A model generated the notes under the pieces. The model was given only the letters and a program-made list of their open reading frames with translations. It made no database searches and had not been told where the DNA came from. A stretch of DNA of 64,000 bases from Eubacteriales bacterium (GTDB taxonomy: Bacteria > Bacillota > Clostridia > Oscillospirales > CAG-272): contig JAZRDI010000021.1 in NCBI GenBank assembly GCA_045660185.1, forward strand, positions 8,870 through 72,869. Reading direction: 5' to 3'. Each line of letters starts with the position of its first letter. Positions within the stretch are counted from its first letter, which is position 1. The position numbers and the translations under genes are program-made. Positions 30,062 to 35,200 of the stretch are shown here, piece after piece.

Positions 30062-30310
30062 AAGATAGGAAAAAAGAAATGGTAGAAAAAATTAAGTTTG
30101 CAATATTCGATAATCAAGTGTAAACGAGTCTGTGCTTGCACAAGCGAGACACACGCAGATTGCTCCGCGACGATTCGACAGAGTCGAATGGAGTGCGCAG
30201 CACCAAAGATTAAAAAATCTTTGCGTCGCAAAGGAGTATATGGATGGAAAGCAAAGAAAAAGATAGGAAAAAAGAAATGGTAGAAAAAATTAAGTTTGCA
30301 ATATTCGATA
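30060..30310. repeat. Perfect 53-bp direct duplication flanking a 145-bp hairpin-rich element
   Basis: aaaagatagg...caatattcgata at 30060-30112 and 30258-30310; inner hairpins tgtgcttgcaca, attcgac-aga-gtcgaat and caaagatt-aaa-aatctttg. Confidence 0.92.
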
Positions 30311-30942
30311 TGGACGGCACCCTCGTTGATTCCCTTGGATATTGGGATTATTTTTGGGAGGAGTTTGGCAAAAAGTATTTTCCAGGTCAGAAGCTTGAGA
30401 AAAACGAGGATATAGACAGGGCGATAAGAACGATTACTATGCGTGAGGCGAGTGTGCTTATCCGCGACAAGTGTTTACCCGGCGGCTCGGCTGAGGAAAT
30501 TTTCGAGCTTGCTACGGGTATGCTCTCGGAGCATTATAGCACAAGAGTTGACGTTAAGGGCGGAACGAGAGAATTTCTCAATTATCTTAAGTCGCGAGGG
30601 GTTAAAATGTGCGTTGCGAGTGCGACTGTTCCGGCGTACATTAAGACAGCTCTTGAAAGACACGGCCTTTACGGATATTTTGAATTCAGCATATCCTGTG
30701 ACGAGGTTGGCGCTGGCAAGGAAAAGCCCGACGTGTTCCTTGAAGCACTGAAAAGACTCGGCGGAAATCTTGCCGAGGCGTGCGTTTTTGAGGACTCGTT
30801 CATAGCTCTCGAAACCGCAAAGAAGGCAGGCTTTATGACGGTTGGAATTTACGATAAAAACAATTATTGCCAGGATAGACTTGCCGCTGCGTCTGATTTT
30901 TACGTTGCAGAAGGTTCAACTCTCCTCGACATTCCACAGTGA
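30277..30942 (+). CDS. HAD family phosphatase
   Basis: FDMDGTL, KPD and FEDS; ancestral ATG 30277 (alternative ATG 30244 supplied by the inserted element). Confidence 0.9.
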   Translation: MVEKIKFAIFDMDGTLVDSLGYWDYFWEEFGKKYFPGQKLEKNEDIDRAIRTITMREASVLIRDKCLPGGSAEEIFELATGMLSEHYSTRVDVKGGTREFLNYLKSRGVKMCVASATVPAYIKTALERHGLYGYFEFSISCDEVGAGKEKPDVFLEALKRLGGNLAEACVFEDSFIALETAKKAGFMTVGIYDKNNYCQDRLAAASDFYVAEGSTLLDIPQ

Positions 30943-31121
30943 TATACAAAAAACAGATAATATGTTATATATAAATGAGGCTTCCGCTTTTATCGGTGGC
31001 CTCTTTTTTATTTTTGAGTTAATAGTCTTTACATATACCGAATTGTTATTGCTTCAAACGGAAAAATATGTGATAAAATACGACATGCTATAATAATTAA
31101 AAAACAAAAAGGAGTAGTATT

Positions 31122-31976
31122 ATGAAGAAAATAACGTCGGAGCAAATAGCAGAATTTCAAGAACATCTTATTCTTGAGGAGAAATCCAAGGCTACGGTGG
31201 ATAAGTATGGAAGAGATATAGAAGCGTTTGCTAAATGGGCATCCAAAAATGAGCTTAACAAGGCAATCGTGTTAAGTTATAAAGCGTATTTGTGCGAAAA
31301 ATATGCAGTTTCAAGTGTTAATTCGATATTATCATCAATGAATAGCTTTTTTAATTATTTCGAATGGTTTGAGCTTAGGGTAAAGACAATAAAAACGCAA
31401 AGACAAATCTTTGCGCAAAACGAGAAGGAAATAAGCAAAGCAGAGTATGAAAGACTTCTTATATGCGCTCGATCAACACAAAATGAAAGATTATATCTTT
31501 TGCTTCAAACGATATGCTCCACCGGCATTCGTGTTTCGGAATTAAGGTTTATAACAGTTGAAGCCGTGTCTTTATTTAAAGCGGAAATTAATTGCAAGGG
31601 AAAACAAAGATATGTGTTTTTGCCAATAAAACTTTGCAAAATGTTGCAAAAATATGCTGCAGAGAGAAAAATAAAAAGCGGTCCCATCTTCATTAGTAAG
31701 AACGGAAATCCGCTTGATAGATCGAATATATGGTGCGAAATGAAAAAGATTTGCCGCCGGGCAAACGTTGCCGAGAGCAAGGTTTTTCCTCATAATTTGC
31801 GACATCTGTTTGCAAGAACTTATTACACTATGCAAAAGGATATAGTGCGTCTTGCAGACATTCTTGGTCACAGTAGTGTTAATACAACTCGCATTTATAC
31901 GATGGAAAACGGTGCGATTCATCAAAAACAAATCCAAAATCTTGGTTTGGTTGATGACTTGTGCAGCATAATATAA
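31122..31976 (+). CDS. Tyrosine recombinase (putative DNA invertase)
   Basis: TGIRVSE, GK, HNLRH, LGH and TRIY: complete catalytic set; aggag RBS. Confidence 0.93.
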   Translation: MKKITSEQIAEFQEHLILEEKSKATVDKYGRDIEAFAKWASKNELNKAIVLSYKAYLCEKYAVSSVNSILSSMNSFFNYFEWFELRVKTIKTQRQIFAQNEKEISKAEYERLLICARSTQNERLYLLLQTICSTGIRVSELRFITVEAVSLFKAEINCKGKQRYVFLPIKLCKMLQKYAAERKIKSGPIFISKNGNPLDRSNIWCEMKKICRRANVAESKVFPHNLRHLFARTYYTMQKDIVRLADILGHSSVNTTRIYTMENGAIHQKQIQNLGLVDDLCSII

Positions 31977-31987
31977 AAAACCGCGCT

Positions 31988-32194
31988 ACATAATTAATAT
32001 TATGTGGTGCGATGATAAAATATTTTAAACCCCAAAAAGTGTAAAGTCAAGCACTTTTTGAGGTTTTTATTAAATAAGTAAATTTAGTTTAGTAAACAAA
32101 TACAAAAAAGTTAATAAAATTTGTATAAATTGTTAAATAGCACTTGGTTCTGTTCGTTTTCTATATTGAAATTACAACATAATATTAATTATGT
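31988..32194. promoter_or_regulatory. Putative invertible promoter segment bounded by 18-bp inverted recombination sites
   Basis: ACATAAT-TAAT-ATTATGT (31988-32005) and ACATAAT-ATTA-ATTATGT (32177-32194) are exact reverse complements; internal minus-strand TTGACT-17-TAAAAT at 32050-32022. Confidence 0.85.
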
Positions 32195-32221
32195 GGTAAA
32201 AAACAAGGAAGGAATCTAAAA

Positions 32222-35200
32222 ATGAAAGTCAATTTTAAAACCACAGTTAAGAAGCTTTTCGGTGTTTTGGTTTTGGCGACAATGATAATTTCCGTTTTGA
32301 TATCTTGTCAAACAACACAAACGCCTAATCCCGAAAAGTTAACAGCTCCCACGGTAGTGTTAAATGAAAACGAAGCTACCTGGGAAGCAAATCCAAAGGC
32401 GGAGCGCTTTGAGATAAGCGTTAATAACAATCTGTCGTATATCGAAAATTCGATCACGAGTAAACTTTTGGAGGATGGACAGACCTTCAAAATCCGTGCA
32501 ATCGGTGATGGAACGAATTACTCAAGCAGTGAATGGAGTAATGCTGTAACTTATTACGGAGAAATCTGTACGCACAATTTGATGCATAGCGCAACCAAAA
32601 ATGCCACTTGTACGGAAGTTGGACAGATTGAATTTTGGTATTGTGAACTCTGCGGAAGAATTTACAGCGACGAAGCTTGTAATACGCAAATAAGCAGACA
32701 AGAAATAATTGTTCCGGCAGTAGGACATAGCGTGGTGATTGACCCCGCTGTTGACCCCACTGACATGACGCCCGGCTTAACCGAAGGGTCCCATTGTAGC
32801 GTGTGCAATCAAGTGTTCGTTGCACAGCAGGTAATTTACAAAACCGAAGGATTTTCCATTACATATTCCATTGTGGGATCAGATACGTATTTGGCACAGC
32901 AGACGATTGTAAACTCTAATCCGACATCTTATCATTATGGTCAAGAAACCATTGTTTTGAGTGATCTTTCTGCTCCCGCAGGATACGAATTTCTTGGATG
33001 GTATGATGCTCCGCAAGCCGCAGGGGGAACTCGCGTAACGGAGATTGCCAAAGGAACTTCCGGAAACAAGTCACTGTATGCTCACTGGAAGGAAATAGTG
33101 TATGATATCACCTACAAACTGTATCAAACTCCACTTGGAGCGATCACAGAGGAAAGATATCTCCACTATACTGTGAGCAAAGGGCTTAAAGACCTGCCTA
33201 ATCCTGAAATTAACAATTATGTATTTTTGGGTTGGTATACCGATAACGGAGAAGAGATGGATAAGATTCCCGTAGGTATAACAGGAGATATTACGCTTAA
33301 TGCTTATTGGACGAGTAAACGCAATCTTACCAAGGTGGTTAAGTCTCTTGGTGATCCTATTATAATTGAAGATAGCGACAGTGGAGTGCTTTACTTCACC
33401 TACGAACTTGGTTCTATTGAAAACGTACCTCTGTCTGATGCAATTTGGACGATTCAAAGTGTTTCCGGTTTGGCACAGCAGAAGTCGGAAACTGTTTCTA
33501 TAACGATCTCACAAGAAAAAGCAATGGAAATCGCAGATACAATTTCAAAATCTACGGTTGATTCTGCAACGTGGACTCTATCCGAAGATTGGAATGATGT
33601 TACCAGTGTAAGTGAGGAGTGGGCAGCGCAGCAAGGAATGACTGTTGAAGAAGCGAATCAGGTGACTAAATCCGAATCCGGTACAATTAGCATAACAACA
33701 GGTAACGGTGGCTGTAGCACCACTACCGAGACGGACGGTACTACGACAGTTACCTATGATAGCAAGAACGAAACGCGTGGTAATAGTGCTGAATTTAATA
33801 TTAAAGTAAATGGTAGCTATAGTGCCGAAGCGCATGCAGATCTTAATCTGGAAGTAGTACCAGGCGCAAGTTTAGATGTTGGTGCTAGCAGTAAGTGGGA
33901 AATTGGTGGAGAAGTCGGTGGCGGCTACGAGCAGCACAAAGATAGAAATGAACACACCGGCACAGATACCACTAAGGTTGATAGCAAAGTTACAACCGGT
34001 AGCACGTCATGGAACAATTCCAAGACCTCCTCTGAAACAAAATCGGCAAGCCAAAGCGAATCCGTTAGTAAGGCTCTTTCCGAAATTATTAGTAATACAA
34101 AGGGCTATGGAAAATCCTATACCTCCGGTGGTGAGAATAGCGAGTCTCAAGCCTTTAGCTCTACAGATAGTAAGAGCGTAAGCTCCAGCTCGTCACTGAC
34201 TTACTTCTCATCCGAGACCAAGACAACCACAACTACATACTCCACAGACGGAAAGAGCGAGGGATGTTACAGACTTGTGATTGCCGGTACCGTCCACGTG
34301 TTTGGTGTTGTGGGATATGACGTTGCAACACAGTCTTATTTTACCTACACGTTTAATGTGTTGGATGATAAGACATATGAATTTCTTGATTATTCCCCCA
34401 CGTTGAGCTTCGATGATTACGAGAATGGCGCACTGCCTTTTGAAATCCCTTATTTTGTACACGAGTACGTAACCAGTAAGACTGTTGTAACTGAGAGCTT
34501 GACATATACTACAGATTCTACAACGGGTACGGCTGTTGTTACTAATTTTGGTGAGAACGTTGGAACTAAGGAAGTTCCCAATTGGGTATATCCTACCTTA
34601 GATGTCGTAGTTCCTTCTTACATTTCATCCGGTGGTAATGCATACAAGGTTACCGGTATTGCTTCAACCGCTTTTTCCGGAAAGCCGATTCGTTCTATTA
34701 TTCTTAGTGATTATATCACCGACATTCCTGCCAATGCGTTTAAGAATTGCACTTCGTTGGAACAAATTTCCGGTCGCTTTACAACAATAGGGGATAATGC
34801 ATTTAGTGGTTGTACCGCATTGGAAGGCTTTACGGTTTCCGGTCGCACAACATCAATTGGTAAAAATGCATTCTATGGTGTTACTACGTTGAAGGTTAAT
34901 GCCTTAAATGTAGAGTATGCACCGACAAACTCTTCTGAGATTACACAGAATGTGGTTCAGAGCGCTGTGGAATCCGGCGCGAAAAATGTGATAATAAACA
35001 TTTCAAAAATTGCAACAAATACGATACTTACATTAAATGTACCGGCAATCGATAGTTTTGAATTGATTGGTGACAAGACGGTTACGTATACGGATTTGAA
35101 GATTGTTTCTCTTGCGCGAACCATAAAAATACGCAATTTAACGGTCGCGAATTGCACAAGAATTCCTCTTGAAATCAAGGATGGAGATATAATTCTGGAT

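Follow-up and report, generated by a model that had tools for sequence, protein, structure and literature searches.

A predicted invertible-promoter cassette with an Xer-like recombinase and dif-like sites in a Clostridia genome and its relatives

Described promoter switches and the locus

In the fimS switch of E. coli, a tyrosine recombinase gene adjoins a short stretch of DNA with a promoter, the inversion of which switches a surface structure ON or OFF. The enzymes of that system, FimB and FimE, are about 200 aa in length and belong to a different subfamily from the one studied here, and the segment has 9-bp repeats accompanied by sites for accessory proteins. In bacteria of the low-GC Gram-positive type, too, tyrosine recombinases flip short regulatory stretches ahead of genes for surface proteins, as in C. 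difficile (RecV) and in Mycoplasma (Xer-like promoter or gene inversions), with RecV being encoded away from its several targets. The invertible promoters of gut Bacteroidota are well mapped, while those of gut Clostridia are mostly entries in read-based catalogues. We analyzed a candidate switch of this type in a 64,000-nucleotide stretch of DNA (the window; positions below are counted from its first letter unless another locus is named) from Eubacteriales bacterium of the lineage CAG-272 (assembly GCA_045660185.1, contig JAZRDI010000021.1, positions 8,870 to 72,869). A sequence-only reading had proposed that a tyrosine recombinase gene, two short inverted sites and a promoter between them form a switch in front of a gene for a 1466-aa lipoprotein. 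Our analyses make it highly probable that the locus is a working phase switch and a self-contained cassette. From the intact parts and the behaviour of the family, we infer that the window copy flips, by the action of this recombinase and with an active promoter.

The arrangement was as proposed, all earlier coordinates matching on re-reading of positions 30900–32400 (features are collected in Table 1). The left site, ACATAATTAATATTATGT (ACATAAT-TAAT-ATTATGT), follows the recombinase stop codon (31974–31976) after an 11-base gap (31977–31987), and the right site, ACATAATATTAATTATGT (ACATAAT-ATTA-ATTATGT), is its exact reverse complement. Palindromic arms (ACATAAT/ATTATGT) surround asymmetric centres, TAAT on the left and ATTA on the right, which are inverted relative to each other. 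A repeat search extended the inverted repeat inward to 21 nt with 95% complementarity (31988–32008 and 32174–32194). Allowing at most one mismatch and leaving the 4-base centre free, ACATAAT-N4-ATTATGT matched twice in the window against 0.02 matches expected, and none of 100 shuffles reached two; a chance palindrome was therefore dismissed as the origin of the 18-bp inverted sites.

Searching the whole 2.77-Mb assembly of 103 contigs for further sites, we found CATAA-N6-TTATG nine times. Only two inverted pairs with reverse-complementary centres were among these, each directly 3' of a recombinase gene. Contig C97 contains the second recombinase and switch cassette of the genome (locus L005, 5443–7759), also in the OFF state. 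Its recombinase of 279 aa shares 67% identity with that of the window and 96% with a protein found in other assemblies. The sites, TACCACATAATTCTCGTTATGTAGT and an exact inverted partner 198 bp further (L005 6306–6330 and 6528–6552), have the centre TCTC and enclose a perfect TTGACA-17-TATAAT aimed at the recombinase. The cargo is an operon, with a gene for an SPFH/Band-7 zinc-ribbon protein first and three more genes after it.

The recombinase of the window had been read as intact. Its open reading frame is whole and all six catalytic residues are present, with R137, K159, H224, R227, H250 and Y259 invariant in an alignment of 21 homologues. The protein matched Pfam Phage_integrase (PF00589; 6.3e-29, 101 bits vs a cut-off of 27) and has an N-terminal SAM-like domain too. 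Xer proteins (XerC/XerD and XerA) are its closest sequence relatives: the best NCBIfam models, all scoring under their cut-offs, were XerA (143 bits, cut-off 220), XerD (125, cut-off 330) and XerC (117, cut-off 335), and the nearest solved structures were XerA- and XerC-like proteins and XerD (PDB 4a8e, 5hxy and 1a0p). With the FimB/FimE-type models, the scores were 29.8 bits for NF007370 (cut-off 221) and 28.6 bits for NF007371 (cut-off 222), which places the enzyme outside these families. As a stronger XerD-like gene (191 bits) is present elsewhere in the genome, on contig C58, we consider the recombinase an extra Xer-like paralogue and not the housekeeping one.

Inside the segment, we recovered the minus-strand promoter TTGACT-17-TAAAAT, its –10 box ending 16 bp from the left site. 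According to the consensus scan, it aims at the 3' end of the recombinase gene, in agreement with the earlier claim that the lipoprotein gene is OFF in the assembled orientation; with only 27 bp between the right site and the ATG, this gene has no room for a promoter of its own. Absent from the sequence-only reading was a strong hairpin, the loop of which holds the –35 box. On the plus strand, where it is followed by UUUUUAUU (terminator tail AGGTTTTTAT), its folding energy is –16.6 kcal/mol (z –5.2), and on the minus strand –18.1 kcal/mol (z –7.0); on both strands 0 of 200 shuffles folded as well. The T-run after the hairpin is better on the plus than on the minus strand. The hairpin looks like a bidirectional terminator and, in the present orientation, would stop transcription from the recombinase gene short of the lipoprotein gene.

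Other promoter- and terminator-like sequences occur in and around the switch. TTGACA-18-TATCAT (11/12 consensus positions; 32282–32311, minus strand) lies within the part of the lipoprotein gene coding for the signal peptide and aims back at the switch; it may be a chance match. Terminator-like sites in the switch region number four against 0.9 expected. Two antisense terminator-like hairpins are found within the recombinase reading frame (31749–31766 and 31395–31416, minus strand), downstream of the OFF-state promoter, and might limit antisense transcripts.

As in fimS, the recombinase gene reads into the switch, an arrangement allowing orientation-dependent control of the recombinase. The family to which the window locus belongs differs from fimS in having dif-like palindromes of 26–28 bp with a variable centre and an enzyme that is Xer-like, not FimB/FimE-like. 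It differs from RecV as described above in that each switch has its own adjacent recombinase. The dif site is a single site for dimer resolution, whereas this family has two inverted sites around a promoter and can have several cassettes per genome. The likeness to the dif sites of E. coli and many proteobacteria, as tabulated in the text of PMC2731167, is a match of layout only and consists of the 11-6-11 arrangement and the inner bases CATAA-N6-TTATG. Unlike in Xer/dif, one and the same half-site forms both arms, implying a single recombinase and not a C/D pair.

The text of a read-based PhaseFinderDC survey from 2025 (PMC11892184) describes an inverton group, numbered 139, that comprises 33 invertons, 32 of them from Clostridia. 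No other pairing in the survey is as strong as its link to tyrosine invertase group 35, and a tyrosine recombinase gene adjoins nearly every member. Read-supported flips are given there for Clostridium sp. D5 (25-bp repeats, 206 bp) and Intestinimonas butyriciproducens (13-bp repeats, 228 bp). Size and taxon, the two features compared, agree with the family of the window, and the family is probably inverton group 139 with invertase group 35. The survey text offers no site anatomy, dif link or biochemistry for group 139, and the organism of the window is not among the strains it names. Many Firmicutes invertons were predicted in human metagenomes in PMC11602134, the text of which gives no motifs. 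Our literature search found no paper describing this site motif with its invertase, or the likeness of the motif to dif, the motif of group 139 lying in the supplements of PMC11892184, which the search did not cover; searching with the letters of the motif retrieved papers on dif, and primers unrelated to it. The earlier statement that the family is uncharacterised holds for biochemical characterisation in the literature searched, but probably not for its discovery, as the survey is likely to include it already.

Related cassettes and inversion between the sites

A scan of the genome collection with the single recombinase protein found no relative, but a scan with a recombinase profile, using one genome per species, confirmed at least 591 among 600 candidate stretches, and we analyzed the best 80 loci. 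By their record titles, these come from gut Bacillota/Clostridia-type bins, except for one bin labelled Gastranaerophilaceae. At least one ACATAA-N6-TTATGT site with at most one mismatch was present in 76 of the 80 loci, and in 74 it was found within 64 bp past the matched recombinase end (farther away in L047, at 157 bp, and in L092, at 483 bp). The site pairs expected among homologues were found in 66 of the 80 loci, where a second, inverted site with an exact reverse-complement centre encloses 190–399 bp. Ten of the 14 loci without a pair are on contigs ending less than 400 bp after the gene; L038, L089, L096 and L103 have enough sequence, yet no pair was detected under the search rule.

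Based on 72 site pairs (those of the 66 loci, the window, C97 and further relatives), the consensus of the sites is tACCACATAAT-NNNN-ATTATGTGGTa, with constant arms and 46 distinct centres. Several cassette loci can be present in one genome: four were readable in G030, a genome of the same order, and two or three in four metagenome-assembled genomes (MAGs) of the profile scan. Among the six multi-cassette genomes that could be compared, the centres differed between cassettes in four, were the same in one and were partly shared in G030.

Nearly every relative's segment contains a near-consensus promoter of the TTGACA-17-TATAAT type, directed outward and usually located 26–39 bp from one site. 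A state was assigned when the best promoter scored 10 or higher and exceeded the other strand by more than 1. By this rule, the promoter was at the recombinase end (OFF) in 42 of the 66 paired loci and at the cargo end (ON) in 16, the remaining 8 being ambiguous. Further relatives from the genome search were OFF in L008, L010, L011 and L020 and ON in L007, L009 and L012. Most of the relatives' segments have a strong hairpin upstream of the promoter, with a median best energy of –18.7 kcal/mol in comparison with –11.8 kcal/mol for shuffles, and 56 of the 66 loci reached –15 kcal/mol or lower. A recurrent stem, AGACCAATG...CATTGGTCT, was found in most of the loci L024–L101 (e.g., L064, L026, L042 and L073), often with A-run/T-run flanks. 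Judged from its sequence, it looks like a bidirectional terminator, although it may instead be a site for an accessory protein.

Relatives in opposite orientations were found in L064 and L071, from two near-identical genomes, in which a 255-bp segment is reversed between identical sites and matching flanks. The two segments agree at 254 of 255 positions as reverse complements only, the identity being 27% in direct register. The flanks differ at 47 of 1712 positions on the left and at 19 of 2187 on the right (~97–99% identity), and the assemblies have different isolate labels. The cargo of both is a TetR-family regulator, and the recombinase is 61% identical to that of the window. The pair represents a natural inversion exactly between the sites, at a homologous switch and not at the window's own. 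For the proposed inversion of the segment, the support comes from relatives, through the architecture of the 66 of 80 loci, the location of the promoter at either end and the pair L064/L071, and not from reads of this genome.

Some relatives depart from the common layout. A third site copy in direct orientation was present in L031, L033, L045, L048, L051, L061, L063, L073, L082, L084, L088, L098, L007, L008 and L010, with a fourth copy in L048 as well. The extra copy is mostly ~32 bp from one end (63–118 bp in L007, L048 and L088), and layouts with one site on the left and two on the right and with two on the left and one on the right both occur, which fits recombination of the outermost sites too. 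The sites of L012 (genome G031; at 2382 and 2656) have the non-matching centres TCTTCA/TACAAA and its promoter is ON; by sequence, it may be a locked-ON copy. The 399-bp segment of L080 has consensus outward promoters at both ends, and either orientation would drive both the cargo and antisense transcription. In some loci the halves of the stem upstream of the promoter change in pairs (GACCGGT/ACCGGTC and GACTAATG/CATTAGTC). In G030, we counted seven recombinase copies (L015 and L018–L023) with 38–44% identity and a variant site, ACATTA-N6-TAATGT, and three readable loci with an identical centre. Five of its contigs stop inside the recombinase gene or at most ~125 bp after it (in L023, ~580 bp after a partial match), and these contig ends could reflect repeats or mixed orientations.

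Table 1. Features of the cassette, in window positions
Feature	Positions	Strand	Details	Basis
Terminator-like hairpin and T-run	30984..31009	+	stem 30984–30999, then CCTCTTTTTT; 3' of HAD hydrolase gene	
Candidate recombinase promoter	31066..31097	+	TGCTATAAT; extended –10 at 31086–31094; weak –35	read from sequence
Xer-like tyrosine recombinase, 284 aa	31122..31976	+	presumed invertase	Pfam, alignment
Left recombination site	31988..32005	+	with flanks (~31984–32009) spans the 26-bp family consensus	
Invertible segment, 171 bp	32006..32176	.	contains promoter and hairpin; bounded by both sites	
Sigma-70-type promoter TTGACT-17-TAAAAT	32022..32050	–	10/12 consensus positions	
Terminator-like hairpin	32027..32066	.	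over –35 box and spacer; both strands	
Right recombination site	32177..32194	+	exact reverse complement of left site	
Ribosome-binding site AAGGAAGGA	32205..32213	+	8 nt 5' of ATG	read from sequence
Cargo gene, predicted surface lipoprotein, 1466 aa	32222..36622	+		open reading frame, Pfam

Upstream of the cassette is a gene for a HAD hydrolase (30244–30942, by Pfam), and the terminator-like hairpin behind it forms the left boundary of the cassette. The promoter scan near the recombinase start gave GTGATA-16-AATAAT at 31070–31097, with 9 of 12 consensus positions.

Proposed mechanism and competing explanations

In the mechanism that we propose, the Xer-like recombinase would bind the two dif-like sites, each with palindromic arms of ~11 bp and a 6-bp crossover region, the middle 4 bp of which are specific to the locus. 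Four half-sites would be bound as in Xer/dif, and strands would be exchanged across the 6-bp T-NNNN-A. As the asymmetric centres are opposed, the outcome would be inversion of the 171 bp. In the OFF state, the promoter would fire to the left and transcribe the end of the recombinase gene in antisense, and the lipoprotein gene would be OFF because the promoter is aimed away from it and the hairpin separates it from the recombinase transcript. In the ON state, after inversion, the promoter would be placed 16 bp before the right site and would drive the 1466-aa gene. If transcription starts ~7 nt after the –10 box, the leader, holding the site and the ribosome-binding site, would be ~54 nt long: ~9 nt would come from the segment, 18 nt from the site and 27 nt from the stretch up to the ATG.

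Several observations weigh against this account. The search for pairs demanded reverse-complement centres, so the count of 66 presupposes this property in part. Two of 10 positions in the outer arm of the left site depart from the family consensus, no relative has so short a segment (171 bp vs 190–399 bp), and the distance from the –10 box to the site is 16 bp in comparison with mostly 26–39 bp in the relatives. The window segment also lacks the AGACCAATG...CATTGGTCT hairpin of most relatives and has one of its own instead. The promoter is a consensus match only, at 10 of 12 positions, and weak plus-strand matches (9/12) in the switch region make basal expression possible. A search for public runs listed four DNA runs, all from one study and available as low-depth contigs, and no RNA run. 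The contigs contained no inverted joint at the window locus, and one of 219 nt reads across the right site, joining it as in the reference. Since minority orientations are invisible in contigs, the run contigs neither support nor refute flipping. An exact search with 29 bases of the segment gave no match in the metagenome contig collection.

One could read part of this as the mark of a frozen relic, in which the anatomy of the switch is kept without flipping and the lipoprotein gene is permanently silent or expressed from elsewhere: only the OFF orientation was seen at the window locus, the left outer arm is off consensus, the segment is atypically short and, considering the non-matching centres of L012, locked copies may exist. 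We regard such a relic as unlikely, given that the 18-bp sites are still exact reverse complements, that the recombinase has an intact reading frame with all catalytic residues and a counterpart 98% identical in other assemblies, and that a MAG consensus represents the majority orientation only, with 42 of the 66 relatives being OFF too. The hairpin raises a different alternative. A switch of the terminator type operates at cwpV of C. difficile, and the orientation of a hairpin this strong (z –5.2 and –7.0), with a T-run that is better on the plus strand, might likewise gate read-through from the recombinase promoter, the promoter-like hexamers being incidental. The hairpin, however, forms on both strands with a U-rich tail on each, and inversion would not clearly open it; moreover, the most constant element of the relatives is the outward near-consensus promoter, which is hard to explain if it is incidental. 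This makes a terminator switch very improbable.

That there is no switch at all, the sites being the chromosomal dif or the ends or attachment sites of an Xer-mobilised element and the recombinase the housekeeping Xer, is extremely unlikely. The resemblance of the sites to dif and the name XerD given to relatives in databases would fit such an explanation. Against it, two inverted copies are found 189 bp apart around a promoter in place of a single site, this genome has a second locus of the kind and some others have several, and L064/L071 differ by an inverted, not an excised, state; the recombinase itself scores far under the XerC, XerD and XerA cut-offs, with the better XerD-like gene located on C58.

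Beyond the invertible promoter itself, we tentatively suggest, as a possibility that may well prove wrong, that the family is a horizontally spread plug-in switch module derived from the Xer/dif machinery, with two features that the texts consulted do not describe, the 4-bp centre as a locus address and feedback from the orientation. The centre within an otherwise constant dif-like site would keep the several cassettes of a genome from recombining with each other. Antisense transcription in the OFF state would lower the recombinase and stabilise OFF, while turning ON would lift this brake; such antisense feedback would explain the bias of 42 OFF to 16 ON loci. Orientational control of the recombinase is known from fimE and is akin to the feedback proposed here.

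Spread, cargo and significance

The window recombinase has a 98% identical relative in other assemblies, and the next one is not above 73%. Relatives within the same genus are just 48–51% identical and present in 5 of 24 genomes. With close relatives in other assemblies and only distant ones within the genus, we infer that the cassettes move horizontally. The G+C content over 31000–32999, covering the recombinase and the switch, is 34–38% in comparison with 41–45% in five 1-kb bins upstream; this low G+C and the patchy distribution in the genus (5/24 genomes) suggest horizontal acquisition. A contig from a public run (X2) is 94% identical to the recombinase gene over 31128–31956 and then continues with a different site, ACGTAAT-TGAT-ATTATGTGGT; by its sequence, it appears to be a close relative of the window cassette with another centre. 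An unannotated 10-kb record labelled 'Bacteriophage sp.' from human faeces (MT836497.1) has a 44% identical recombinase near its end.

A typical cassette, in its OFF orientation, was found in Monoglobus pectinilyticus. In the isolate Pusillibacter faecalis MM59, a 47.6% identical recombinase, annotated in the record only as "tyrosine-type recombinase/integrase", is located before a gene for a 1500-aa SLH protein and is accompanied by inverted repeats of different sequence. A metagenome scan with the 18-base site returned at least 118 stretches, nearly all of them single chance matches in unrelated habitats. Two loci of one metagenome assembly, L114 (661–846) and L144 (4767–4952), contain inverted pairs of the same 18-mer 150 bp apart and with longer arms, TGACATAAT...ATTATGTCA. 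No recombinase homologue was found by tblastn in L114 (1.4 kb) or L144 (8.6 kb), and Pfam detected no integrase in four neighbouring reading frames of L144; the two pairs may be orphan switches served in trans.

The 1466-aa protein encoded behind the window switch matched Pfam Flg_new (6.7e-37; four stretches of Listeria-Bacteroides repeats), LRR_5 (1.3e-14; BspA-type LRR) and TIGR02543. Its translation begins with a predicted signal peptide ending in ...VLISC, a lipobox that points to a lipoprotein-type protein, and the signal peptide, LRR and repeats suggest a large surface protein. Among 60 genomes of the same genus, a search for an orthologue of the gene without the cassette gave just five distant partial matches (38–50% identity), none with sites upstream. 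Giant surface proteins are encoded 3' of the switch both in the window and in the Pusillibacter record.

The cargo of the relatives was diverse. Taking as cargo the first reading frame of at least 60 aa beginning within 450 bp, a crude choice, we obtained 35 Pfam families in 62 loci, with TetR_N in eight, YpsA in four and SPFH/Band_7_1 in three. Domains seen in single cases included BspA LRR, subtilase, SLH, collagen repeats, Wzy_C, acyltransferase 3, CAP12/Pycsar TIR, MACPF and an AbiEii-like ATPase. Surface proteins, envelope modification and defence-like proteins, all represented among these cargo domains, are typical classes of phase-variable traits.

The locus studied here belongs to a large family of Clostridia cassettes that is probably catalogued already, though uncharacterised. 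The anatomy of the family is now set out: an Xer-like recombinase, two dif-like sites with a variable centre, and a promoter and a terminator between them. Because this anatomy is so regular, the sequence by itself is enough to recognise such switches, including those in metagenome bins. The list of cargo genes indicates which traits are varied within populations of poorly cultured gut bacteria, and in the organism of the window, the 1466-aa BspA/LRR lipoprotein and the SPFH operon of C97 are probably expressed in a subpopulation only.

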